Shown here: positions 1,591-31,491 of the stretch, one piece after another
Layout: each line of letters opens with the position of its first letter
How positions within the stretch are numbered: the first letter of the stretch is position 1
Notes under the pieces: model-generated
The model's input: only the letters and a program-made list of their open reading frames with translations
Told to the model about the DNA's origin: nothing
The model's database searches: none
Program-made: the position numbers and the translations under genes
Assembly (NCBI RefSeq): GCF_003231495.1
Contig: NZ_PQWO01000003.1
Location: 270,001 to 302,000, forward strand
Direction: 5' to 3'
Length of the DNA: 32,000 nt
Source of the DNA: Acaryochloris thomasi RCC1774
GTDB lineage: Bacteria; Cyanobacteriota; Cyanobacteriia; Thermosynechococcales; Thermosynechococcaceae

Positions 1591-3900
1591 TCAAGGTTTT
1601 CCGAGGGTTTGTAGCAGTTGTCCCGTCATTAGTTGCCAAACCCGGATGGTATTGTCTTCGCTACCGCTGACGACAATCGCGCCGTCGGGACTAACGCTCA
1701 ACGCCGAAATTTCACCGCTGTGTCCTTTGAGGGTCTGGACTAACTGAGCATCCTGTAAGCGCCAAAGCTTGATCAGGCTGTCGCTGCTACCGCTGGCCAA
1801 GACTGCGTTATTTGTGCTGAGCGCTAACGCAGAAATGGCTTGGCCATGTCCAGGCAAGGCTCTGATCAGCTGACCTGTTTGCATGTTCCAAAGATGGATG
1901 GCGCCTCCTAAACCTCCGCTGGCCAACTGACGACCATTCTGGCCAACGGCTAGGGCACTTGTAAACTGCATTGTCTTGATCGCATCCCAGTCATTCACAT
2001 TGGGAAAGCTGCGTCGAAACTGTCCCGTTGGGATGTCCCACAGCTTGATTTGGCCATCACTGGTACTGCTAATTAAGGTCTGGGCATCAGGGGTAACGGT
2101 AATGGCTTGGGAGGTTGATACTGAACCTGGCTCAATTTGCCGAACTTCATTGGTTCGTAAGTCTCGGAGCAAAATGGTACCGTCCCAGGCTACGGAGGCT
2201 AGGATTGTTCCACTGCTATCCAACGTTTTGCCGACGGTCTGCCCTCCAGCTTCCTGTAAATTTAAGCGATTACGAGGCTCCCCTGTTGCGAAATCCCACA
2301 GCAAAACTTTGCCGCTGGCGCTGCGACTGACCAGTATTTTCCCCCGATCGGCAAACTGGACGGAGGTAACGGGTTCATAGTGACCAGATAAGGTACGTAG
2401 TAGCTTCCCGGTCTGCAGATTCCAAATTTTGATCATAAAATCTTGGCTACCGCTGACTAGAAATCGACTGTCAGGGCTGATTGCAAGGGTCGAGACCCGA
2501 TCTCCATGGCCTCGTTGACTTGTTGAGGCTCTTATAGATTCAGGCTTCGGTATTTTGGAACCGGGAAGTGTAGTGGATAACCATTCAAAGGAGCGGGTCA
2601 GCTGTTGGTCAAAGGAGCGCTCTAAAGATTGAGGGATGCTCCCGCGTAGATCGGGCAACAATAAAATTGCGAGGCCCGCTAAGCTAGACAGACAAAGAAA
2701 ACTGCCCACCACTGCTTTCGAAGGAGTCGGCAAGCGGATCAGGGCCGACCGATGCCTAGTGGAAGGGGATGGCAGGCTGCTAGAGGAGTGACGCTTGTTT
2801 GAGGTAGACCGTCTGAGAGAAGTTGGTTTTCTAGGGGAGGCGGTTCCGCGAGGCTTGGGGGCCGGGCGAACTTTTGGCTTGGGTTTTGGACTGAAGATAT
2901 CAATGTTGAGCTTGGATTTGCGATCGCACCAATAGCACCGACCATAGCTGAGGCTATAAAGATGATTGGTCTCTATTTTGCAGGTCATCAGATCCTTGCG
3001 AGCCAGCCTTAACGCCCTCACCCAATCAGCTGCAGTAGGTCGATTCTGGGGTTGCCGATGTCCCTTGGAGAAGCAACGGTGAAAGCAATCCTGCAGTTCA
3101 GGATGCACGATGGATAAAGCAATGGTGTGGGGGCCGGGCTGAATCAGGCTGTCTTTTCCAAAGGGCCAGTATCCGGCCTTAATTAACTCTGATGGCTGCG
3201 GTGACTCTCCTTTACCCACCCAGCGACCCTTGAACGGTTGGTCGCCAAACAACAGTAAATAGATGATGACTGCTAATCGAAAGCGGTCGTGGATCTCTGT
3301 TTGATCAACCGTTGCCAGATCTTGACCGAGAAGCTCTGCTGGCGTGAAGCCTTCAGAGCCAACAAGGCATCGATAGAGCTCACGCGTGTGGGGGTCACGT
3401 ACCTGAAAGGAATCAGCATCAATGACAGAAACCAGAGCCTGATTATTGACCAAGATATTCTGAGGTTTGACGTCACCGACGACGTAATCTTCTTGGTGCA
3501 GCGACTGCATCGCCAGCGCAATATTCAACGCGGCGGTGTGCAGATAGTACCAGTTGAAGCGAGGAGCTTTCCGACTGCGCAGCTTCGCATTGTAGATCGT
3601 TGAAAGCTTAACGCTGCTGTCCACCTCCGGCATTAGAAAACCTAGGCATTGCCCCTGAGAGTCCTGCAGCAAATCGTGGGGCCATGCAAAGGTAATATGC
3701 CCGTGTTCCGTCATCGGATCGCGAGGGGGGTGGGCTACCATCACCTGCAGCTTTTTCACCCTTTCAGGGGTCGCTGTATGGTACAGCTTTGCCAGGTATC
3801 CTTTAAGACTAGTCTGCCAGACCGTTCCTTCACCGCTATTGGCAATTTGATCCGTCAACTGGACGGACTGACCTGCAATCATGCGCAGCAGAACCGTCAT
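1591..3900 (-). CDS. Ser/Thr protein kinase-like protein (YegI/TerY-P-type) with Cys cluster, basic S/P-rich linker, one TM helix and C-terminal 7-blade WD40 propeller
   Basis: 769 aa. The kinase core has SGEGTVW (G-loop-like), LAKLY (Lys), VGDVKPQNILV (catalytic loop), VIDADSF (DFG-equivalent) and GFTPAEL. It is followed by C-x13-C-x2-C, then a K/R/S/P-rich stretch (aa 337-395), then AVVGSFLCLSSLAGLAILLL (aa 396-415). Seven WD-type blades end in IWNL, LWDF, LRDL, LWDI, LWNM, LWRL and VWQL. The ATG overlaps the upstream stop (ATGA). Confidence 0.85.
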   Translation of the reverse strand: MTVLLRMIAGQSVQLTDQIANSGEGTVWQTSLKGYLAKLYHTATPERVKKLQVMVAHPPRDPMTEHGHITFAWPHDLLQDSQGQCLGFLMPEVDSSVKLSTIYNAKLRSRKAPRFNWYYLHTAALNIALAMQSLHQEDYVVGDVKPQNILVNNQALVSVIDADSFQVRDPHTRELYRCLVGSEGFTPAELLGQDLATVDQTEIHDRFRLAVIIYLLLFGDQPFKGRWVGKGESPQPSELIKAGYWPFGKDSLIQPGPHTIALSIVHPELQDCFHRCFSKGHRQPQNRPTAADWVRALRLARKDLMTCKIETNHLYSLSYGRCYWCDRKSKLNIDIFSPKPKPKVRPAPKPRGTASPRKPTSLRRSTSNKRHSSSSLPSPSTRHRSALIRLPTPSKAVVGSFLCLSSLAGLAILLLPDLRGSIPQSLERSFDQQLTRSFEWLSTTLPGSKIPKPESIRASTSQRGHGDRVSTLAISPDSRFLVSGSQDFMIKIWNLQTGKLLRTLSGHYEPVTSVQFADRGKILVSRSASGKVLLWDFATGEPRNRLNLQEAGGQTVGKTLDSSGTILASVAWDGTILLRDLRTNEVRQIEPGSVSTSQAITVTPDAQTLISSTSDGQIKLWDIPTGQFRRSFPNVNDWDAIKTMQFTSALAVGQNGRQLASGGLGGAIHLWNMQTGQLIRALPGHGQAISALALSTNNAVLASGSSDSLIKLWRLQDAQLVQTLKGHSGEISALSVSPDGAIVVSGSEDNTIRVWQLMTGQLLQTLGKP
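2920..2927. repeat. HIP1 octamer GCGATCGC
   Basis: Exact match read in the sequence. Confidence 0.95.
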
Positions 3901-4670
3901 TGACCCTGCTCACAAAGGCACATCAGCAGCGTTTTATCATCATCGGTTTTAGCGTTGAGACGGTCAGAATTGAGGAACGTCTCTAGATATACCTGTCGCT
4001 CTGCCGGATCATCCATTGTCTGCAAACAGGACATAAACGGCGCAAAGAAGGGAGGATGCGGTTGCCAATCATGGAAGCGAATGGCAACCTTCTCTAAGCC
4101 ATCGGTGGCGGCACATACGAGGGGCTGTTCCCCGGACTTGACCGCAACCTGCATAGCATCTAAGGCATGCTCTGAAGTCACAAAGACTGTTTCATTGATA
4201 TACTCTCCTTTCTCTGGCTGAAAAAGAAGCTGATACGGCTCCGTTTCTGACATTTTTGCCACAATGAAGCCATCTCCTATCTGCATCGCAGCAATCCAGG
4301 TGGGGGTGGCGATAAAGGTTAACAGCGTACAGCCTAGATCTCGCAGGGCGTAGCCACCAGCCTGGGCTTCTTGATCAAGGGCCAACACCGCCGCATCTAA
4401 TGCACTTTCAAAAATGGCCTGCGCTTGCGTCTCAATGACCTCTCGCTCTAAAGAAGATTGGCTAGAGAGCCATCTTTCTAGATTTGAGAGTACTGTTTTA
4501 ACGGCAAGTTGAGACCCAATATCTGAATATTTGGCGCTGCCCGCTCCGTCAGCAACTGCACCAATGATGCTGTGCTCGCAGGTCACAAAGTCACCATAGT
4601 CCTGGCAGGGAACGCCCCGCTGTAGATGCCGGGTCCCCATCGCTGAATGAACAGTCGCTCTCCAGACCAC
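3897..4670 (-). CDS. PP2C-family protein phosphatase (TerY-P triad / YegK-PphC-like)
   Basis: The N-terminus VWRATVHSAMGTRHLQRGVPCQDYG and the later AVADGAGS, MQIGDG and ATDGL blocks fit PP2C-like phosphatases. I place the start at GTG 4670 because AGGAG (4680-4676) lies 5 nt upstream. The ORF stays open to a TTG at 4730, so the start is uncertain. The stop overlaps the kinase ATG. Confidence 0.8.
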   Translation of the reverse strand: MVWRATVHSAMGTRHLQRGVPCQDYGDFVTCEHSIIGAVADGAGSAKYSDIGSQLAVKTVLSNLERWLSSQSSLEREVIETQAQAIFESALDAAVLALDQEAQAGGYALRDLGCTLLTFIATPTWIAAMQIGDGFIVAKMSETEPYQLLFQPEKGEYINETVFVTSEHALDAMQVAVKSGEQPLVCAATDGLEKVAIRFHDWQPHPPFFAPFMSCLQTMDDPAERQVYLETFLNSDRLNAKTDDDKTLLMCLCEQGQ

Positions 4671-4774
4671 AGCCACTCCTTTGCACGGTTTAATCGTTGT
4701 GATGCTTAGGTCACCCCAGGGATACCACAAGCTAAGAACTACAGATATTCTCTCGGTTATTGGGCTACAGGTTA

Positions 4775-5437
4775 TTAAGTTGCAATCTGTCCCCAGCCAA
4801 CAGGCGGCAGCGCCACCATATCGCCGCCAACGGTGCTGCTGGAAACGCGAACCATCGAGTCACTTAACCAGAGGAACATGGACCGAAAGTCTAGACCGTT
4901 TAGCATCAGAGGCGGTCGCTCTGCAGGGGCGATTTGGCTAAGCGTGTAGATATCCGCGCCCTGGACGCCGACAGCAAAAAATGACATCTTACGTTGGGCT
5001 TCAGCTTCTCGAATACGCTGGGCGGCCTGTTGCCAGGGTGAGGTTGGGTTGGGTGCTCCATCGGTAATTAGAAACACCCAAGGTCGATAGTATTGAATCC
5101 CATTAGTACGATAGGTTTGCTTACGATCTTCAAGGAGATCGAGGGCGTAGGTCAACGCTTCTCCCATAGGCGTTAATCCCTGGGCGACTAAGGTCGGTGG
5201 GACAAAGTGGTCAATGGTAACGAAGTCCTGGACCAGTTCCACGGGGCCAAAGCTGACGATCGCAACATCCACTCTCAGGGCGGCCTGCTCATCTTGGAGA
5301 ATTGCATCTTGAAATGCTTCTAGGCCCGTATTGAGAGCGGCCATAGGCGCACCCTGCATTGAACTAGAGGTATCTACCAATAAAATTACAGGGCACCGAT
5401 TCTCGGGATTTTCAACAAATTCCGGTTGTCCTACCAT
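4775..5437 (-). CDS. von Willebrand factor A (vWA) domain protein, TerY/YegL-like
   Basis: 220 aa. It has a MIDAS motif in VILLVDTSSSMQG, a later LTPMGEAL block and WVFLITDGAPN. ATG at 5437 is preceded by GAGGA. Confidence 0.85.
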   Translation of the reverse strand: MVGQPEFVENPENRCPVILLVDTSSSMQGAPMAALNTGLEAFQDAILQDEQAALRVDVAIVSFGPVELVQDFVTIDHFVPPTLVAQGLTPMGEALTYALDLLEDRKQTYRTNGIQYYRPWVFLITDGAPNPTSPWQQAAQRIREAEAQRKMSFFAVGVQGADIYTLSQIAPAERPPLMLNGLDFRSMFLWLSDSMVRVSSSTVGGDMVALPPVGWGQIAT

Positions 5438-5596: not shown

Positions 5597-7870
5597 TTAT
5601 TCTTGCGGTTCTTGCCGCTGGCACTCTTCAAGCTGACTGACGCGGCGCAGCTTCAGAATATCGCTCATTTGTCGAATGCGGGCGCTGATTTGGTCCAGCT
5701 GGTTGCAGTGTTCAATATCTAGCCCCAGTGTAATCAAGGCGGTTTGTCCTGGAAAGGTTTTAACTTGTGCTTTATGAACGTTGACTTTGTTGTCCGTTAG
5801 GCGAGTCAAAATATCCTTGAGGACGCCAACGCGATCGATCACCTCAATCTGCAGCTCGATGGGATAGGTGGGTTGGCGTTTACTCTGTGGCTTTGGGGTG
5901 TTCCAACTTACGGGAATAACGCGATCTCCGGGAATATTCTCGACATTGGAACACCCCTGACGGTGAATCGAGATTCCCCGATTACTCAAGGTAATTACAC
6001 CAATAATCGACTCGCCAGGAATTGGATGGCAGCAGCCAGCGATGTGATAGACCAAGCCTTCGACGCCCAGGATTGGAGAATCACTGGTTTTCTCGGGGCG
6101 TTGGGCTGCAGTGCTGGAGACGAGGTTGATATCTTTAGCTTCTGTGGCCAGGTCATGGCCGTTTTTCGCCTGCTCGTCTCGATTGGTCTCTCGAATGCGA
6201 TTGACGACTAGGTTGAGCGTGATCTCGCCATACCCTAGCCCTGCTAGCAGATCTTCTGGGGTCGAGTAGTTACAGCGCTGGGCAACCGCCTGCATCGGTT
6301 CAGATTTAAGTAGGGCGTCAAACCCTTTTTTGCCCAGCTCTTTCTCTAACATGCTGCGACCCCGGTCGATGTTCTCATCCCGGTGCGATCGCTTGTACCA
6401 TTGCCGAATGCGATTGCGGGCAGAGGTAGAGGTGGCAAAGTTGAGCCAGTCCAGGCTGGGATGGGCGCTTTTTTGGGTCATGACTTCGACGATGTCGCCG
6501 TTGGTGAGGGCGGTATCGAGGGTAACCATCCGACCATTAACGCGCGCCCCGCAGCAGTGATTGCCGACTTCGGTATGAATGCGATAGGCAAAGTCAACGG
6601 GGGTCGCGCCACGCCCCAGTGCAACTAGATCTCCCTTGGGAGTGAAGATGTAGACTTCGCTGTCGAAGAGATCTTCCTTGACGTTATCGAGGAATTCTTG
6701 GGCGTCTTTGAGGTCACTCTGCCATTCTAAAAGCTGCCGCAGCCAGGTGAATTTTTCATCGGCAGCGTTCCATTGCCCGCCGCGAGAATTACCGGATTCT
6801 TTGTATTTCCAGTGGGCGGCAATTCCCAGCTCGGCAATGTGGTGCATTTCTTGGGTACGGATTTGTACTTCTACGGGGCGTCCCCCTAGGCCAATGACGA
6901 CAGTATGGAGGGATTGATAGCGGTTGGGCTTGGGGAGGCCAATATAGTCTTTGAAGCGTCCAGGAATCGGTCGGAAGCAGTCATGGACGATGGCTAGGGC
7001 GCGATAGCATTCGTCGTGGGTGCTGACGATTACTCGGACGGCGGCGACGTCGAAAATTTGATGGAAACCCTTTTGCTGCCGCTCCATTTTTTGATGGATG
7101 CTGTACAGATGTTTGGGGCGACCCGTAATCTCTAAATGACTGAGGTTGAGGGAGCTGAAACGGCTCTGGAGGGTTGCGATCGCATCTTCAATCTGCGCCT
7201 CTCGATCCGCTCTCTTTTCTGCGATCAGCGTCTGCATCTCTCGATAGTCTTCAGACTCTAGATACTTGAAAGCCAGATCTTCGAGTTCCCATTTAAAGCG
7301 CCAAATCCCTAGGCGATTCGCCAGGGGAGCAAAAACATCTCTCGTCTCTTGGGCAATGCGGCGCTGCTTGGCCAGAGGTAAATGCTCCAAGGTGCGCATA
7401 TTGTGGAGGCGGTCCGCTAGCTTAACCACAATCACTCGAATATCTTGGGCCATCGCCAAAAACATGCGGCGAAAATTTTCAGCTTCCCGCTCCGTCTTCG
7501 TCGAGAAATTGAACTTTGAGATTTTGGTCACCCCTTCTACTAGGTGCCGCACCTCAGCCCCGAAATCTTCCTCGAGCTGCTCTAGCGTAATGTCAGTATC
7601 TTCAACAACATCATGCAAGAAGCCCGCTGCGATCATCGAACCGCTCCCCCCCAGCTCCCGCAATAGACCCGCCACCGCCACCGGATGAGCAATGTAAGGC
7701 TCCCCAGATGCTCGGCGCTGCCCCTCATGAAGCTGATAACCGAATTGAAAAGCCTGGCAGATCAGTTGTGCGTCTGATGGACTCTTTCCAGCCTCTCCAT
7801 CAACCTCAATCATGCAGCTTTGCAACCAGTCAGGGAGTTGAAGATCAGAAGGGATGGTTGCCAGGTTCAT
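5597..7870 (-). CDS. spoT: Bifunctional (p)ppGpp synthetase/hydrolase (RelA/SpoT homologue)
   Basis: 757 aa. Contains an HD hydrolase motif (FLHDVVEDT), a synthetase block (RFKDYIGLPKPNRYQSLHT), a TGS region and a C-terminal ACT-like domain. Confidence 0.95.
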   Translation of the reverse strand: MNLATIPSDLQLPDWLQSCMIEVDGEAGKSPSDAQLICQAFQFGYQLHEGQRRASGEPYIAHPVAVAGLLRELGGSGSMIAAGFLHDVVEDTDITLEQLEEDFGAEVRHLVEGVTKISKFNFSTKTEREAENFRRMFLAMAQDIRVIVVKLADRLHNMRTLEHLPLAKQRRIAQETRDVFAPLANRLGIWRFKWELEDLAFKYLESEDYREMQTLIAEKRADREAQIEDAIATLQSRFSSLNLSHLEITGRPKHLYSIHQKMERQQKGFHQIFDVAAVRVIVSTHDECYRALAIVHDCFRPIPGRFKDYIGLPKPNRYQSLHTVVIGLGGRPVEVQIRTQEMHHIAELGIAAHWKYKESGNSRGGQWNAADEKFTWLRQLLEWQSDLKDAQEFLDNVKEDLFDSEVYIFTPKGDLVALGRGATPVDFAYRIHTEVGNHCCGARVNGRMVTLDTALTNGDIVEVMTQKSAHPSLDWLNFATSTSARNRIRQWYKRSHRDENIDRGRSMLEKELGKKGFDALLKSEPMQAVAQRCNYSTPEDLLAGLGYGEITLNLVVNRIRETNRDEQAKNGHDLATEAKDINLVSSTAAQRPEKTSDSPILGVEGLVYHIAGCCHPIPGESIIGVITLSNRGISIHRQGCSNVENIPGDRVIPVSWNTPKPQSKRQPTYPIELQIEVIDRVGVLKDILTRLTDNKVNVHKAQVKTFPGQTALITLGLDIEHCNQLDQISARIRQMSDILKLRRVSQLEECQRQEPQE
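6385..6392. repeat. HIP1 octamer GCGATCGC
   Basis: Exact match read in the sequence. Confidence 0.95.
7176..7183. repeat. HIP1 octamer GCGATCGC
   Basis: Exact match read in the sequence. Confidence 0.95.
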
Positions 7871-8451
7871 GTGTTGAGCAGATTATTGAAGGATCAAGAA
7901 ACAGAGGTAAATAGACGGTCCCTGGATAGCATCTATCGCTAGATAACGCTCAAGGATCCCACTCACTTTCTCTATTCTATGTAATATTCTCTCAATGTAT
8001 GGTGACAGATGATCAAAAATTCTGCTTTGAACACAAACTGCGAATTGCCTGCATCCGTAAAAATCGAGAGGGTCTAAGGCTCATGGTGTAAGCAGAGCCT
8101 CACAATCTAAGAGCTTAGGCTATTGAAAACAACTTTATTAGTTATGGATGCAGAAGTAGCGTCCATCCGTGTTCAACTATCTGAAATGTCGAGTCACCAG
8201 CCAATGCAGCAGAACCAGCTTTTAGAAAAAAGCAAGCTGGAATAACACCTGATCAAATCCAGATTTTTACTCTCTAAAGAAAAAAATATACTGTATTAGA
8301 CTTAATCGGTAGAATATCTTTAAATAAAATCAAAAGTTAATTGCGATGCGATAGATAAGAATACCTAAAAAAAACAACAAATGGTAAATCTTGATATGCT
8401 TCTCTTTCAGTTTATCTGAGATAGAAATGTCAGCTCATCCAGGCTTTTGCC

Positions 8452-9309
8452 ATGACTACGGCCCCCATTATGGAACCCATCAAGCTATTAATCATTGAGG
8501 ATGACACTGGTGACCTCGAGCTACTGGAAGCGTACCTTGAGCCAATGGAATCGGAAGTCATTGAAGTTGTTGTCTGTCAATGGCTTCGGGATGCGAAACA
8601 ACAGTTAGAATCGCAACGTTTTGACCTAATTCTCTTGGATTTATCCCTACCAGATAGTAGAGGATTAGACACCTTTAGAAAAATTCAGGGTTTTGCGCCT
8701 ACAGTACCCGTTGTGATTCTCAGTGGCCTCAGTGATCAAGATCTATCATTGCAGGCTGTCCGCTTAGGTGCTCAAGACTATTTAACAAAAGACCAGGTCA
8801 ATAGCCAGATTCTGTTGCGATCTATTCATTACGCCGTTGAGCGGCACAGGCTCCTATTACAGGCTGGCCAAACGGAGCGGCAAACCCAGAATGAACGTGA
8901 CCTATATCTGCTGGAATCTTTACCCACCCAGCAAAGCACTGTTACTGCGATGTTGTATAACTCAGCCTCGCTCAAAGCCAGTTTCCCTGATGAGTTTCAG
9001 CAAATGGTTCAGCAGTATGGCCGATTGATGGATCTAGCCTTAGAAAAGCGTATGTTTCAGCTCGGTAGCTCGCTTTCTGACCAGCTTCAGGCTGTGGCAG
9101 AAAACCTTGCTTTTTATCAAGTTGGCCCCCGCGACGTGATTGAAATTCATACCGCTGCCGTTCAAACGAAGACCGCTGATTCGCCTTCCGAGAAAACAAC
9201 CGCCTATCTGGAAGAATCTCGTTTTCTAGTGCTAGAGCTGATGGGATATTTGGTCGCTTACTACCGTCGCTATTGTGTTAGAGTCAATCAGCCCAAAATA
9301 AAGCCATAA
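8452..9309 (+). CDS. kaiA3: Chimeric KaiA-like protein: canonical response-regulator receiver domain fused to a KaiA-type C-terminal domain (KaiA3-type)
   Basis: aa 11-135 form a complete REC domain: EDD 16-18, phospho-acceptor D63 in LILLDLSLPD (nt 8638-8640), S91 and K113. The C-terminal segment GPRDVIEIHTAAVQ...EESRFLVLELMGYLVAYYRRY aligns by eye with the S. elongatus KaiA C-terminus (VTKVVEIHMELMDEF...LLDYRLTLIDVIAHLCEMYRRS). The gene lies 22 nt upstream of kaiB. An alternative start is ATG 8470. Confidence 0.7.
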   Translation: MTTAPIMEPIKLLIIEDDTGDLELLEAYLEPMESEVIEVVVCQWLRDAKQQLESQRFDLILLDLSLPDSRGLDTFRKIQGFAPTVPVVILSGLSDQDLSLQAVRLGAQDYLTKDQVNSQILLRSIHYAVERHRLLLQAGQTERQTQNERDLYLLESLPTQQSTVTAMLYNSASLKASFPDEFQQMVQQYGRLMDLALEKRMFQLGSSLSDQLQAVAENLAFYQVGPRDVIEIHTAAVQTKTADSPSEKTTAYLEESRFLVLELMGYLVAYYRRYCVRVNQPKIKP

Positions 9310-9331
9310 ATTATTATCCCGAGTGTCTTCC

Positions 9332-9607
9332 ATGAGCAAGATTCTGCTAACGCTTTATATTACTGGACGGACCCCAAAGGGAGAAAGGGCGATTGCAAAC
9401 CTTTCACAAATATGTGACTCACAATTTCCAGACCAGTATCAAATCAAAATTATCGACGTGCTTGAGCAACCTTACCTAGCAGAGCAAGAAAAGATATTGG
9501 TAACGCCTACTTTGATCAAGCAGCTCCCTCCACCTCTAAGACGCCTCATTGGCGATCTATCTGATCAAGAGCAAGTATTGGTCGGTTTGAACGTGCACCC
9601 CCAATAA
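9332..9607 (+). CDS. kaiB: Circadian clock protein KaiB (short form, no acidic tail)
   Basis: The translation LLTLYITGRTPKGERAIANL...IIDVLEQPYLAEQEKILVTPTLIKQLPPPLRRLIGDLSDQEQVLVGL is closely collinear with KaiB. ATG 9332 is preferred over the in-frame GTG at 9323. Confidence 0.9.
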   Translation: MSKILLTLYITGRTPKGERAIANLSQICDSQFPDQYQIKIIDVLEQPYLAEQEKILVTPTLIKQLPPPLRRLIGDLSDQEQVLVGLNVHPQ

Positions 9608-9643
9608 TCTAGCAACAGAAGTTCCTACAATTATTTGGCGTTT

Positions 9644-11191
9644 ATGAGTTCCAATCAAAAGTTTGCAGACATCCAGGCTGATGAATGTGTAGAAAAACTA
9701 CACACGGCTATCCCTGGTTTAGACCTTATTGCAGAGGGCGGCCTGCCTCAAGGACGAGTGACATTACTCTCTGGGACCGCAGGCAGCGGAAAAACAGTGT
9801 TAGCGGCCCAGTTTCTGGCTGCAGGCATCGTGCACTGCGACCAGCCAGGGGTGTTTATCACGTTCGAAGAACCGCCCAAGGCGATCCGCAAAAATATGCG
9901 TGGATTTGGCTGGACGATTGCGCAATGGGAATCAGAGCAGAAATGGGCGTTTGTGGATGTGTCCCCTCAGCCTCATCAACCACCAACGGTGACGGGCGAG
10001 TATGACATGGGGCCGCTGCTGGCCCGTATTGAGTATGCCATTCGTAGTATCAAGGCGAAACGAGTGGTGCTTGACTCCCTCGGCTCAATTTTTAATCGAA
10101 TTCCCGATCAAGCTTTAGTGCGCGAGGAACTCTTTCGATTGGCGCTTGCGTTAGGTGAGCTAGGAGTTACAACTATCGTCACTGCTGAGCGTGCCGCTGA
10201 ACATGGTGAAGTGGCTCGTTTTGGCGTCGAAGAATTTGTGACGGATGACGTGATTATTCTTCGCAATGCCCTCGAAGCCGAAAAAAGACGCCGAACGGTA
10301 GAGATTCTAAAGTTTCGAGGCACCTCTCACCAAAAAGGTGAGTATCCGTTCACAATTTTGCCAGATGAAGGACTGATCGTAATTCCACTATCTGCGATGG
10401 AGCTGACCCAAACGTCTACTGATGAGAGGATTACGTCAGGGATATTGGAGTTAGATGACCTGTGCAACGGTGGCTTTTTCCAAGATTCGGTGATTTTGGT
10501 GTCAGGACCAACAGGCACCGGTAAAACACTCCTGGTGACTCAGTTTTTGGATGGCGGCTTCAAAAATGACGAGCGCTGCCTGTTATTTGCCTTTGAAGAA
10601 AGTCGCGATCAGCTTAATCGTAATGCAACCGGCTGGGGCGTCGATTTTGATGCAATGGAAGAAGCCGGTCTGCTGAAAATAGTTTGCCGCTACCCTGAAT
10701 CGACTGGATTAGAAGATCACCTGATCCGGATGAAAGAAGTCATGGAGGCTTATAAACCCAATCGTGTCGCCGTTGATAGTCTTTCTGCACTGGAACGGGT
10801 TTCGACGGAAAAAGGCTTTAGAGAGTTCGTGATTAGCCTGACTTCGTTTATCAAGGCCCAGAAGACCGCTGGTTTATTCACTGCGACCACCGCCAATTTG
10901 TTAGGAGGCACCTCGGTAACAGAGGCACATATTTCTACCATTACGGACTCCATTATTTTGTTGCGGTATGTGGAGATGTTCGGTGAGATGCGTCGCGGGA
11001 TGACGGTGCTGAAAATGCGAGGTTCCATGCATGTGAAGGATATTCGGGAGTTTCGGATTGATGGAAGCGGCGCCCATATCGGTAAGCCGCTTCGCAACAT
11101 CAATGGCATCCTTTCTGGCAACTTTTCCTATATGAATCAGGGTGAATTAGATAGAATGAGTCAGCTCTTTAGTGAACCTTCTGCTCATTGA
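9644..11191 (+). CDS. kaiC: Circadian clock ATPase/autokinase KaiC (double RecA-like domain)
   Basis: Two Walker A motifs (GTAGSGKT at nt 9773-9796 and GPTGTGKT). Catalytic EE pairs in ITFEEP and FAFEES. The phosphosite motif EAHISTITD has Ser at 10934-10936 and Thr at 10937-10939. There is a C-terminal A-loop-like INGILSG. ATG 9644 is preferred over the TTG at 9635; with it, Ser/Thr number 431/432. Confidence 0.92.
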   Translation: MSSNQKFADIQADECVEKLHTAIPGLDLIAEGGLPQGRVTLLSGTAGSGKTVLAAQFLAAGIVHCDQPGVFITFEEPPKAIRKNMRGFGWTIAQWESEQKWAFVDVSPQPHQPPTVTGEYDMGPLLARIEYAIRSIKAKRVVLDSLGSIFNRIPDQALVREELFRLALALGELGVTTIVTAERAAEHGEVARFGVEEFVTDDVIILRNALEAEKRRRTVEILKFRGTSHQKGEYPFTILPDEGLIVIPLSAMELTQTSTDERITSGILELDDLCNGGFFQDSVILVSGPTGTGKTLLVTQFLDGGFKNDERCLLFAFEESRDQLNRNATGWGVDFDAMEEAGLLKIVCRYPESTGLEDHLIRMKEVMEAYKPNRVAVDSLSALERVSTEKGFREFVISLTSFIKAQKTAGLFTATTANLLGGTSVTEAHISTITDSIILLRYVEMFGEMRRGMTVLKMRGSMHVKDIREFRIDGSGAHIGKPLRNINGILSGNFSYMNQGELDRMSQLFSEPSAH

Positions 11192-11905
11192 TTGATAAGG
11201 GCTGCATCTGTACAAGATGGTCGTAATGCTGGAACTACTTTCTAACCCTCTATGATTTCTGCGCTCCTAGAAGAACGGTGGAGCTTTGTGTGCTAAATCT
11301 CCTACTCTTTTGCGCACTATACTGTCGGGCTAATGGGTATAGTTGCTTCTGCGAATAGATGCTGTAGCACGTTTAACCAAGTTACAATTTTCCTATAGCT
11401 TTGCGGCGGTGCATCTTTTCAGCTCCAAATAGAGTCACGATTACGATCTCTCGCCGAGATGTATTTTCACACCCACATCAATGGAATGCGAAGCAGCGTT
11501 ACCTCTTAGCTTGAATCTGCGATGGCAGATTCTTTTTCGACTCCAGGTAATTTCAACTATCGAGACTAAGGCCCGATGACTCTCTTGAGCTAATGAGAGA
11601 AGCTTTGAAAGCTTGTGCTAATTTAACCTGTCTCACCTTATCAATTTATTCCTTTATTCTTTATCCAACAAGTTTCTTATACGTGTTCTCATACTTTTCA
11701 AGCATGTTCTTATACATTTTCTTTGACCTCGTAACGGCAAATAAGTGCTATGTATTTGTTGGGTAGATTTTCTTCCTAAATAAAATATATTCTTGTTGGA
11801 GAAATGATCGTTTTATCGTTGAGGCGGGCTAAATAAAGCATGGATGTTAGATCGTAGAATTTAATTTCCTAATTTGCCGATACCTACAGCGTCTGACATT
11901 GAGTT

Positions 11906-14014
11906 ATGCCTACAGGTTCTATTAAGCTTCTAGTAATTGATGACGACCCCGTCGATATTAAGCTCCTGTCGACGTACTTGTCTGGCCACCCACAGCTTCG
12001 GTTTGAACTTCAAGCGGCTCATAGTCTGTCAGAGGGCTTGAGCTGCTTAAAGCAGGATGATGTCGATGTTGTTTTATTAGACTTGTTCTTGCAAGATGGC
12101 GGGGAGGGGCTTCCCACTTTTCGAAGACTCTATGACCACTGTCGAGATATACCAATTGTTATCTTGACTGGGCTGCAAGATGAGTCGTTAGCGGTCTGTG
12201 CACTCCGAGAAGGTGCTCAAGACTATCTCACAAAAGGAAACTTCGACTGCAATTTATTAGGGCGAACGATTCGGTACGCAATTGAACGACATCATTTGCA
12301 TACGCAGATTGAATCCCAAAATCAAGCATTACGACGGAGCGATCACGAGCTGCGCAACCTAATTGAGCGGAATATAGACGGCATCCTGATCTTGGATGAG
12401 AACGGCACTATTCAATTTGCTAACGCGGCCGCGGCCAAGCTTCTAGGACAGCCTGCCTCTGAGATGGTTCAAGAGTGCTTTGGGGTTCCCTTGGTCCCCA
12501 ATCATATGGTTGAGGTGGAAATCCCAGGATCCCCTGAAAAATCCAAAAATGCTGAACTACGTGTGGTGGAGCTGACCTGGGAGGGGAAGAAAGCCTATCT
12601 TGCTTCTTTACGAGACGTGACTCAGCAAAAGGAATCAGAGGTAACTCTACAGCAATTAGCCTACAGTGATTCGCTGACGCATCTTGCCAATCGGGCATTG
12701 TTTATGGAGCGTCTGCGTCAAACCTTAGCCCGTGCTCATCGTCATTGTGATCGTCCGTTTATGGTGATGTTTATCGACCTTGATCACTTCAAGCAGGTAA
12801 ACGATACGCTAGGTCACTCTGCGGGCGATCAGTTGCTGGTTCATGTGAGTCATCAACTGCAACACTGTATTCGGCCAGAGGATACGCTGGCTCGATTGGG
12901 TGGTGATGAATTTGCCATCATTCTGGAAGATATCACTGAGGTTGGGGACGCCATTCGCATCGCAGAGCGCATCTTAGGGCAATTATCTCAGCCTTATACT
13001 TTGCAAGGACATGATTGTCTCATCAGTGGCAGTATTGGCATTGTCTCTAGCCAAAATCAGCTCACGAAAACAGCCTATCCTGATATCGAAAGCTTGCTTC
13101 GAGACGCTGATATTGCGATGTACCGAGCCAAGCAGGAAGGGAAAGCTCGATACGCTGTCTTTGATCACCGTGCGCAGGCCAAGGCAATGCTGGAGTTTGA
13201 GCTTGAGGCAGAGCTGCGACGTGCGGTTGCTCAACAGGAACTCTGTTTGTTCTATCAGCCCATTGTGCGTTTAAAGACCGGAAAGATCTGTGGTTTTGAA
13301 GCGTTAGTGCGTTGGAAGCATCCTCGGCGAGGTCTTCTGGTACCTGGAGAGTTCATGCCCGTCGCGGAACGAACCGATTTAATTGCTGAGATCGATACTT
13401 GGGTGCTGCAATCAGCCTGTCAGCAGTTTCAGTGGTGGAATACGCAAGGGCTCAGTCAACAACTAGGAACGGTGAGCGTTAATGTATCGGGTCGCCGCTT
13501 GGCTCAAAAATCTTTTATCGAGCAAACGCAGCAGGCTCTGCACCGTAGTGGTCTATCGCCGCACCATCTACAGCTAGAAATTACTGAAGATATCATTCTG
13601 ACCAATACGCAAACGGTGGTGAGCAGCTTAGAGCATCTGCGAGCTTTGGGATGCAAATTGAGCATTGATGACTTTGGTACTGGGTATTCTTCGCTCAGTA
13701 GACTGCATTCATTTCCGCTCGATACGCTGAAGGTGGATCGTTCCTTTTTGCTACAGGCCGCTCGCCAACAGAACCACTGGTCGATTGTGCAGGCGATTAT
13801 TAACTTGTCCACCGATTTGGGCTTGAGTGTCGTTGCTGAGGGGATTGAAACCAATGAACAGTGTGATCGACTACGGCAACTTTCCTGTAGCAAGGGACAA
13901 GGATACCTCTTCTCGAGACCCGTCACTCAAGAGAAAGCAACCCAGTTATTGAGGGCCAATCAGTCATACCTTGAACCGGTCGTTTGCCCGACGACGGCTC
14001 TGCAATATGCATGA
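11906..14014 (+). CDS. Response regulator with REC-PAS-GGDEF-EAL architecture (c-di-GMP synthase/phosphodiesterase)
   Basis: 702 aa. REC domain (DDD 12-14, D59, T88, K110). PAS region at aa ~145-245. GGDEF domain with RPED-x5-GGDEF (I-site plus active site, aa 323-336). EAL domain with EALVRW, SVNVS, EITE, DDFGTG, KVDRSF, EGIET and QGY. Confidence 0.92.
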   Translation: MPTGSIKLLVIDDDPVDIKLLSTYLSGHPQLRFELQAAHSLSEGLSCLKQDDVDVVLLDLFLQDGGEGLPTFRRLYDHCRDIPIVILTGLQDESLAVCALREGAQDYLTKGNFDCNLLGRTIRYAIERHHLHTQIESQNQALRRSDHELRNLIERNIDGILILDENGTIQFANAAAAKLLGQPASEMVQECFGVPLVPNHMVEVEIPGSPEKSKNAELRVVELTWEGKKAYLASLRDVTQQKESEVTLQQLAYSDSLTHLANRALFMERLRQTLARAHRHCDRPFMVMFIDLDHFKQVNDTLGHSAGDQLLVHVSHQLQHCIRPEDTLARLGGDEFAIILEDITEVGDAIRIAERILGQLSQPYTLQGHDCLISGSIGIVSSQNQLTKTAYPDIESLLRDADIAMYRAKQEGKARYAVFDHRAQAKAMLEFELEAELRRAVAQQELCLFYQPIVRLKTGKICGFEALVRWKHPRRGLLVPGEFMPVAERTDLIAEIDTWVLQSACQQFQWWNTQGLSQQLGTVSVNVSGRRLAQKSFIEQTQQALHRSGLSPHHLQLEITEDIILTNTQTVVSSLEHLRALGCKLSIDDFGTGYSSLSRLHSFPLDTLKVDRSFLLQAARQQNHWSIVQAIINLSTDLGLSVVAEGIETNEQCDRLRQLSCSKGQGYLFSRPVTQEKATQLLRANQSYLEPVVCPTTALQYA

Positions 14015-29676: not shown

Positions 29677-31153
<1,477 letters not shown>

Positions 31154-31491
31154 TGAAAATCGTAGCATTTACCTAAGAGGAGACGCGCTGAGATTGAGTA
31201 AAGTTTTGCGAGGTTTCGTAAACGCCAACGAATTTATGGGTCAACGATTCCCAGCTCTAAGCGACAGGTTGTTTGTAGTCCTTGCCCAACGACTGTCGTT
31301 AGCTATGCTCGCTGGCGTGAATCCCTTGCCAGGAGAATCTTGGCACAGTGCCACATTTACCAGTAGTTAATTGTTGTGATTGGCTGCTGCGGATCGACCT
31401 TCAGAGGAAGATCTGTGCCAACGGCCATTGAGAATATCTAAGGCTCGTCGCTTTGCCTAGAGTACTGTGTTGTCTCCGAAGCATTCAAACT

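Follow-up and report, generated by a model that had tools for sequence, protein, structure and literature searches.

A probable, divergent KaiA3-KaiB3-KaiC3 module behind a LuxO annotation in Acaryochloris thomasi RCC1774

A 32-kb stretch of Acaryochloris thomasi RCC1774 DNA (the window, whose positions serve as coordinates throughout) carries between 8452 and 11191 three co-oriented plus-strand genes, the second and third of which encode KaiB and KaiC. The product of the first is 100% identical to an A. thomasi RCC1774 protein labelled 'Regulatory protein LuxO', which raises the question whether this gene is an ordinary response regulator that lies beside kaiBC or a KaiA-type activator that belongs to them. 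An earlier reading of the sequence (the original prediction) had favoured the second answer, proposing that a receiver-KaiA chimera precedes a KaiB and a KaiC3-group KaiC. The list of open reading frames (ORFs) places the genes at 8452-9309 (ORF1, 285 aa), 9323-9607 and 9635-11191. In the last two, the GTG (9323) and the TTG (9635) are mechanical starts, and an ATG follows each of them by three codons (9332 and 9644, respectively); once these ATGs are used the intergenic gaps are 22 nt between kaiA3 and kaiB and 36 nt between kaiB and kaiC, exactly as predicted. As described below, we consider that the locus is, with a probability of about 0.8, a KaiA3-KaiB3-KaiC3 module, the second type of Kai protein oscillator, and that it is a divergent, mis-annotated member of this published system, not a new type of system.

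The two domains of the first gene

The kaiA3-like gene (8452..9309, plus strand), delimited by its ORF and by its match to an ortholog of the Synechocystis protein Sll0485, encodes a receiver, a helical linker and a C-terminal KaiA-like four-helix bundle. The receiver (residues 1-134; 8452..8853, plus strand) is recognised by Pfam at residues 13-120 (PF00072, 2.9e-21), and it retains the characteristic residues E16, D17, D63, S91 and K113. Of the 58 family members compared, every one has D63 and K113, and 56 have T or S at position 91. In the AlphaFold model of the full-length protein (predicted local distance difference test score, pLDDT, 89.2) the N-terminal part folds as a (beta-alpha)5 receiver, whose alpha5 helix (118-156) runs into the linker; pLDDT falls below 50 at residues 161-168, and the bundle spans residues 179-274. 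We place the linker at residues 135-178 (8854..8985, plus strand) on the basis of this model and of the nonsynonymous substitution rates given below. The best structural matches of the receiver were true phosphorylatable receivers, namely 6oap, NtrC1, NtrX, FixJ and LvrB, with template modelling (TM) scores of 0.80-0.86 on receiver-only targets, and the KaiA pseudo-receiver was absent from the top 50 structural matches of the N-terminal half of ORF1. Thus, the phospho-acceptor D63, the other receiver residues and the fold matches bear out the earlier view that the N-terminus is a real receiver and not the KaiA pseudo-receiver, and the domain looks phosphorylatable.

The C-terminal bundle (residues 179-274; 8986..9273, plus strand), defined from the model, Foldseek and hhalign, contains the motifs GPRDVIEIH and LELMGYLVAYYRR. 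Its stretch VIEIH...LVLELMGYLVAYYRRY aligns with VVEIH...LIDVIAHLCEMYRRS of KaiA both by BLASTP (24% identity over 74 aa, pairwise E 0.003) and by hhalign, and the resemblance to KaiA that had been noticed there therefore stands. An AlphaFold2 model of the isolated domain (pLDDT 86.4, predicted TM score 0.72) has four helices. When this model was compared with the PDB by Foldseek, ranks 1-8 were all KaiA C-terminal domains (1q6a, 5jwr, 5n8y, 1r8j; probability 0.96-1.00), and ranks 11-12 were again KaiA (1r5q, 4g86), so that the probabilities of the KaiA matches were 0.94-1.00 overall, with TM-scores of 0.62-0.72 on domain-only KaiA targets. RsbU's N-terminal domain (2j6y), which is to our knowledge the only other known protein domain with a KaiA-type four-helix bundle, appeared at rank 31. 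Pfam gave a weak RsbU_N match on the C-terminal region (residues 213-251, E 0.04-0.06) and no other, which likewise indicates the shared KaiA/RsbU fold.

We then rely on profile-profile alignment for the relationship itself. With hhalign, a 255-sequence KaiA3 profile and a 117-sequence KaiA C-terminal profile were brought into register over 89 columns covering all four helices (score 27.6, P 7e-4, probability 27%), VIEIH being paired with VVEIH and LELMGYLVAYYRR with LIDVIAHLCEMYRR. The register was also correct when just two KaiA sequences were used (probability 28%). Among 100 column-shuffled KaiA profiles, which scored 13.2 +/- 2.5 with a maximum of 21.3, none reached 27.6, and the reversed profile scored 16.9; the observed score thus lies about 5.8 standard deviations (SD) above the shuffled controls. 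From the modelled fold and the aligned profiles we conclude that the C-terminal domain of ORF1 is a genuine, though distant, homolog of its KaiA counterpart, in agreement with what has been reported for Sll0485 (PMC11372060).

These results bear directly on the alternative that the first gene is an ordinary response regulator of the LuxO kind beside kaiBC, its C-terminal helices being an unrelated output or dimerisation domain. Such a view can draw on PF00072 being the sole Pfam recognition of the protein and LuxO its best NCBIfam match, as well as on the facts that four-helix bundles are common and that the Foldseek E-values, taken alone, are not significant. However, the match to the LuxO model reaches 59.6 bits where the cut-off is 800 and is confined to residues 15-176, that is, to the receiver, and the 285-aa protein has neither the AAA+ nor the helix-turn-helix (HTH) domain which, together with a receiver, make up a sigma-54 activator of the LuxO/NtrC type; we therefore rejected the label as a misannotation. 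Moreover, all eight top fold matches are KaiA domains, the profile-profile score exceeds the shuffled controls by the margin given above, genes of the C-terminal domain family accompany kaiB and kaiC in many phyla, and the Synechocystis ortholog has been found by experiment to be a KaiC3 activator. An ordinary regulator is accordingly extremely improbable, and we regard this explanation as largely refuted. Since the models of Pfam and NCBIfam do not recognise the KaiA3 C-terminal domain, such modules will be missed systematically by annotation; the present case corrects a 'LuxO' misannotation in Acaryochloris, a genus missing from the published list of KaiA3 orthologs.

Family membership, KaiB and KaiC

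The motif [AVG][GS]PRD[VI][VI][ED][ILV]H retrieved 231 relatives from reference genomes, of which 80 loci were kept for synteny comparison. These include Synechocystis, 14 Microcystis, Cyanothece, Pleurocapsa, Hydrococcus, Roseiflexus and Chloroflexaceae, the taxa named in PMC11372060, and they also cover Acidobacteriota, Verrucomicrobiota, Nitrospirota, Desulfobacterota, Tectomicrobia and others. In nearly all of the 80 loci the kaiA3-type gene is followed by kaiB, and in most of them kaiC comes next; Microcystis, Synechocystis and a few other Chroococcales have no adjacent kaiC, which is the published exception. The Synechocystis salina ortholog (locus L016) is a protein of 299 aa with the phospho-acceptor D65, as described for Sll0485. 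Among the window proteins it matches the ORF at 8452-9309 best, and does so along its entire length (33% identity over 289 aa, E 5.6e-52); a search from the window C-terminal domain in turn retrieves L016, so that the match is reciprocal, with the reverse search covering the window proteins. Identity of ORF1 is 46% to the Zarconia protein, 42% to that of Roseiflexus and 33-36% to the Chroococcales KaiA3s.

The two genes downstream, which had been called unmistakable KaiB and KaiC, are indeed that. Pfam identifies the product of kaiB (9332..9607, plus strand; 91 aa from the ATG, 94 aa from the alternative GTG at 9323) as KaiB (PF07689, 2.3e-29). With 102.9 bits where 110 are required and 100.5 where 145.3 are, it misses the cut-offs of both NCBIfam KaiB equivalog models, from which we take it to be a KaiB that probably departs from the canonical KaiB1 type. 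It appears KaiB3-like, in that comparison with almost every KaiA3-linked KaiB gave 99-127 bits and comparison with the KaiB1s in the PDB 93-96 bits, although these differences are small. KaiC (9644..11191, plus strand; 515 aa from the ATG, with an alternative TTG start at 9635) is identified as a KaiC by NCBIfam and motifs and placed in the KaiC3 group by the tree. It matches NF006799 with 699 bits (cut-off 408) and TIGR02655 with 619 bits (cut-off 546). All of its expected catalytic and phosphorylation motifs could be located (ATG numbering): the Walker A motifs GTAGSGKT at 44-51 and GPTGTGKT at 288-295, the EE pairs at 75-76 and 318-319, and HISTITD, which contains the predicted ISTITD motif, at 429-435, with T426, S431 and T432 lying within TSVTEAHISTITD and the numbering being that of S. 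elongatus.

We found identities of 62-69% between this KaiC and the KaiCs linked to KaiA3, and of 51-54% between it and KaiC1. In phmmer comparisons it scored 700-795 bits against nearly all full-length KaiA3-linked KaiCs, 564-572 bits against KaiC1 structures and 302 bits against the Rhodobacter KaiC2 type, and its best solved relative was 8zn5, the reconstructed ancestor KaiC-beta (680 bits). In a neighbour-joining tree built with eight real KaiC1 references, with KaiC3 defined by linkage to kaiA3 and Synechocystis Slr1942 left out, KaiC1 together with the ancestral gamma and beta proteins split from the window KaiC and the KaiA3-linked KaiCs in 200 of 200 bootstraps, and 13 other cyanobacterial KaiA3-linked KaiCs formed a clade in the same proportion. 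The window KaiC thus stands with the KaiA3-linked KaiCs and apart from KaiC1, and judged from its sequence it is a KaiC3-group protein on a divergent branch. Taken with the match to the Sll0485 ortholog and with synteny, the tree sustains the central proposal of a KaiA3B3C3-type module, that is, a receiver-KaiA chimera, a KaiB and a KaiC of the KaiC3 group.

Several observations weigh against this reading. Pfam KaiA (PF07688) matched neither ORF1 nor its isolated C-terminal region, even at E<=10, and a hidden Markov model of 59 C-terminal family sequences found no KaiA chain at E<=10 when searched against all PDB sequences. The Foldseek E-values (0.06-0.5) are individually non-significant, as is expected for a small helical domain, and the hhalign probability is merely 23-27% with enlarged profiles; it was because bigger profiles left it there that the score was calibrated by shuffled and reversed controls. 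In addition, ORF1 shares just 33-36% identity with the experimentally tested Chroococcales KaiA3s, the assignment of the KaiB to a clade depends on small score differences, and the window KaiC joins the crown cyanobacterial KaiC3 clade in only 51 of 200 bootstraps, wandering in the remaining replicates among Chloroflexota and other lineages. The original prediction had named the failure of a profile search for KaiA as the result that would argue against it, and here the outcome was divided: the Pfam model and the search of the PDB were negative, whereas the calibrated hhalign comparison (0 of 100 controls) and the fold search were positive.

Comparison with a metagenomic relative (locus L081), which was used for substitution rates and synteny, showed protein identities of 78% for KaiA3, 96% for KaiB and 90% for KaiC. 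For all three genes the nonsynonymous rate (dN) is far below the synonymous rate (dS), which is saturated; dN of kaiB is 0.019. Within kaiA3 the linker, with a dN of 0.25, is the least constrained part, the receiver and the KaiA-like domain having values of 0.11 and 0.10, respectively; dN values alone are usable here, as the per-domain dS was saturated or undefined. Thus, kaiA3, kaiB and kaiC are under purifying selection.

Searched more widely, the KaiA3-type C-terminal domain forms a family of 1,814 clusters at 50% identity (E<=1e-3), in which the domain is always C-terminal. The N-termini of 52 long members comprise PAS (44), receiver (26, in the order receiver-PAS-KaiA-like), GAF (9) and MEDS (2) domains, and among the family are proteins of 160-210 aa that have the appearance of stand-alone domains or fragments. 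The published list of KaiA3 proteins holds 15 cyanobacteria and 5 other genera (PMC11372060), and our counts suggest that the family of KaiA-like domains, which extends over many phyla, exceeds this list by far in size and variety; this bears on when KaiA-type activators arose. Two loci are of unusual build. A metagenome-assembled genome (MAG) of Anaerolineae has two tandem kaiA3-kaiB-kaiC modules, the first very divergent (L020, 2408-7996), and a MAG labelled Candidatus Helarchaeota has the order kaiA3-kaiB-kaiC-kaiB-kaiC (L050, 5524-10277), an order that might stem from a binning artefact or from a transfer.

Proposed mechanism and relation to known Kai systems

The system of reference is that of Synechocystis sp. 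PCC 6803, in which KaiA3, KaiB3 and KaiC3 are Sll0485, Sll0486 and Slr1942, respectively (Koebler et al. 2024, PMC11372060). There, KaiA3 forms oligomers, binds specifically to KaiC3 and stimulates phosphorylation of the latter's adjacent Ser and Thr, KaiB3 promotes dephosphorylation, a ternary complex forms with KaiA3 and KaiC3, and the three proteins oscillate in vitro with a damped rhythm; Synechococcus KaiA does not activate KaiC3 (PMC11372060). The KaiA3 system of Cyanothece ATCC 51142 also oscillates in vitro (PMC12081879). By analogy with these two systems, the A. thomasi KaiC would assemble into hexamers of a double-domain ATPase and autophosphorylate at S431 and T432, and the KaiA3-like protein would dimerise via its C-terminal four-helix bundle, bind KaiC and promote this autophosphorylation. 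KaiB would bind phosphorylated KaiC, recruit or sequester KaiA3 and so favour dephosphorylation, giving a roughly daily cycle, perhaps a damped one. We infer from the same two systems that in A. thomasi KaiA3 would bind KaiC and stimulate its phosphorylation and that the module would oscillate; since its KaiC lies outside the crown KaiC3 clade, its behaviour may differ from that of the characterised systems. Unlike canonical KaiA, the protein has an intact receiver (D63), through which a histidine kinase could set KaiA3 activity as an input. The conserved receiver Asp has been taken to suggest kinase input to KaiA3 before, and a connection to RsbU was noted as well (PMC11372060).

The same components could instead work as a KaiBC-type hourglass timer or stress switch, as in Rhodobacter and Legionella, in which the receiver protein is a phosphorylation-gated input adaptor and cycling needs daily resetting from outside. 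The damping of the Synechocystis KaiA3B3C3 rhythm in vitro would fit such a device, and so would the divergent position of the window KaiC outside the crown cyanobacterial KaiC3 clade, the reliance on an external kinase signal that an intact receiver implies, and the adjacent PAS-kinase or GGDEF genes, which are typical of non-cyanobacterial KaiBC signalling cassettes. However, the KaiC is far nearer to KaiC1 and KaiC3 (564-795 bits) than to the Rhodobacter KaiC2 type (302 bits), its phosphosites are an S-T and not an S-S pair, a KaiA-like activator, the component thought to enable autonomy, is present, and self-sustained rhythm in vitro has been reported for two KaiA3 systems. We therefore hold an hourglass to be rather improbable and keep to the oscillator module.

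Compared with the Synechocystis and Cyanothece KaiA3B3C3 systems, the A. thomasi locus has the same three protein types, a KaiA3 composed of a receiver with phospho-Asp, a linker and a KaiA-like bundle, kaiA3 directly upstream of kaiB, and a KaiC with S-T phosphosites that groups with KaiA3-linked KaiCs. It differs from them in the 33-36% identity of its KaiA3, in the position of its KaiC outside the crown clade and in the gene for a receiver-PAS-GGDEF-EAL (RR-PAS-GGDEF-EAL) protein that follows kaiC in its lineage; it further differs from Synechocystis in that its genes are contiguous, as in most other species. With the KaiABC system of S. elongatus PCC 7942 it shares the gene order A-B-C, identical positions of the KaiC motifs, the KaiA fold in the C-terminus of ORF1, and the VVEIH and YRR motifs in register. 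In contrast to that system, ORF1 has neither of the marks of a canonical KaiA, a PF07688 match and a pseudo-receiver without phospho-Asp, but carries a true receiver; KaiA His270/271 corresponds to Tyr266, a position at which the family has Y, H or F; and KaiC is 51-54% identical to KaiC1. The RsbU N-terminal domain of B. subtilis (PF08673, PDB 2j6y) is similar in the weak Pfam match at 213-251 and the structural match at rank 31, but these are far weaker than the matches to KaiA, and RsbU is a PP2C phosphatase activator of sigma-B signalling with no link to kaiB or kaiC. The KaiC2/KaiB2 system of Rhodobacter sphaeroides (PDB 8dba, 8fwj) resembles the locus in its KaiB-KaiC pair and adjacent PAS-type signalling genes; it has, however, no KaiA-like protein, and its KaiC has an extended C-terminus, forms dodecamers and carries S-S phosphosites.

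With regard to novelty, the original prediction had to be revised in two respects. It had singled out the compact operon, but contiguous kaiA3B3C3 genes are the usual arrangement and Synechocystis is the exception (PMC11372060). It had also called the family barely characterised, which is somewhat dated, since the KaiA3 system, its contiguous gene order and its oscillation in vitro, now reported for two KaiA3 systems, were published in 2024-2025 (PMC11372060, PMC12081879). As all interpretive elements are already in Koebler et al. 2024 and Acaryochloris is absent from the text and supplements of that paper (PMC11372060), what we describe is a new divergent member of a known system, and the local biology is otherwise as the published KaiA3 system predicts. 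The A. thomasi genome paper makes no mention of kai, circadian or clock, and the main text of the Schmelling 2017 survey makes none of Acaryochloris.

Canonical Kai proteins were looked for by two queries. A T. elongatus KaiC1 query for an A. thomasi KaiC1 gave a top 120 from other cyanobacteria at 86-99% identity, with no Acaryochloris among the matches listed. The C-terminal domain of S. elongatus KaiA, its query sequence checked against PDB 5n8y, 4g86 and 1r8j, retrieved 229 proteins; the 120 listed all had PF07688 and no KaiA3-type protein was among the matches listed, which were all of <=212 aa and thus blind to an A. thomasi KaiA.

The downstream gene and the surroundings of the module

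Downstream of kaiC lies a gene for a 702-aa RR-PAS-GGDEF-EAL protein (11906..14014, plus strand; Pfam Response_reg, PAS, GGDEF and EAL), a candidate input or output component. It begins 714 nt past kaiC, with one terminator-like hairpin between. Its receiver is 43% identical to that of KaiA3 (E 2.6e-26), and the same gene follows kaiC in L081 (7748-9856; an ~80%-identical relative), where the flanks are syntenic too; it is not found behind kaiC in a 50%-identical relative. Among 36 KaiA3-type loci, largely non-cyanobacterial, the domains encoded by the gene after kaiC were PAS (22 loci), histidine kinase (15), receiver (11) and GGDEF (5). The GC content at third codon positions (GC3) of kaiA3, kaiB, kaiC and the GGDEF-EAL gene is 0.44-0.49, compared with 0.51-0.63 in most flanking genes, and GC is 0.37-0.40 in the intergenic regions that flank the four-gene set. 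Together, this supports a loose association of the GGDEF-EAL gene with the kai module, possibly through a shared origin.

One could go further and regard all four genes, kaiA3, kaiB, kaiC and the RR-PAS-GGDEF-EAL gene, as the functional unit, in which a Kai timer would be coupled directly to cyclic di-GMP signalling. One phosphorelay might then serve both paralogous receivers, those of KaiA3 and of the cyclic di-GMP enzyme, or the enzyme might read the state of KaiC, and the PAS histidine kinases found after kaiC in other phyla might be the equivalent fourth component. We think this extension unlikely and offer it as a tentative one.

The same composition and neighbourhood could also mean that the three kai genes and the GGDEF-EAL gene are a horizontally acquired accessory cassette with little or no timekeeping role in its host. 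Besides the GC3 difference, KaiA3 and KaiC are as near to Chloroflexota as to cyanobacterial versions, and a receiver-PAS gene after kaiC occurs in loci of Chloroflexota, Verrucomicrobiota and Acidobacteriota and not in the other cyanobacterial loci. But the difference in composition is modest, a thiE-like gene in the window having similarly low GC3, every ORF is intact and strong purifying selection acts on it, and the same arrangement is kept together with its flanks in a relative that is 78-96% identical at the protein level; a foreign origin is, furthermore, compatible with function. A cassette of this kind without a role in timekeeping seems to us quite doubtful, and the KaiA3-KaiB3-KaiC3 oscillator module is the preferred explanation here as well.

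Upstream, a relA/spoT gene is divergent from kaiA3, and the AT-rich intergenic region between the two (7871..8451, no strand assigned) has a GC content of 0.372, as against ~0.52 in the flanking genes. The kai promoter region presumably lies there; a consensus promoter scan was uninformative (4 sites versus 6.9 expected in shuffles). The terminator-like hairpin with a T-run found by consensus scan ~320 nt past kaiC (11513..11542, plus strand) is the sole such site in 7800-12000, where 3.4 are expected from shuffles, and is weak evidence of a terminator; it falls in a stretch of ~400 nt (11192-11590) that has no counterpart in L081.

Two short elements in the intergenic regions deserve mention. 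A block of ~75 nt ...CTCTCTATTCTATGTAATATTCTCTCAATGTATGGTGACAGATGATCAAAAATTCTGC (~7950-8025), which on the minus strand precedes the relA/spoT start by 80-155 nt, is almost 100% identical in L081 (~4100-4175), the remaining intergenic region having diverged; it has no Rfam match, and among its possible identities are a regulatory element, a leader and a small RNA. TTCTYATAC occurs as three direct repeats (11674-11682, 11686-11694 and 11707-11715, plus strand) some 200 nt upstream of the GGDEF-EAL gene and has no other match in the 32-kb window; 0.33 matches are expected, and 3 of 100 shuffles reached three. At the position of these repeats L081 keeps two copies of TTCTTATAC, and the repeats may be a transcription-factor site.

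The remaining genes of the window are housekeeping genes, and no further clock gene is among them. A cluster encoding a WD40-repeat protein (769 aa), a PP2C phosphatase and a VWA-domain protein (1591-5437, minus strand) adjoins relA/spoT, and PP2C and VWA genes adjoin relA/spoT in L081 too (L081 13-1553). When the whole window was searched with Rfam, there was no match in or near the kai module, the sole match being the thiamine pyrophosphate (TPP) riboswitch at thiC. This riboswitch (RF00059, 62.5 bits; 31061-31157, minus strand) lies directly upstream of thiC (29677-31053, minus strand), and a thiamine-phosphate synthase fusion gene is located at 447-1517.

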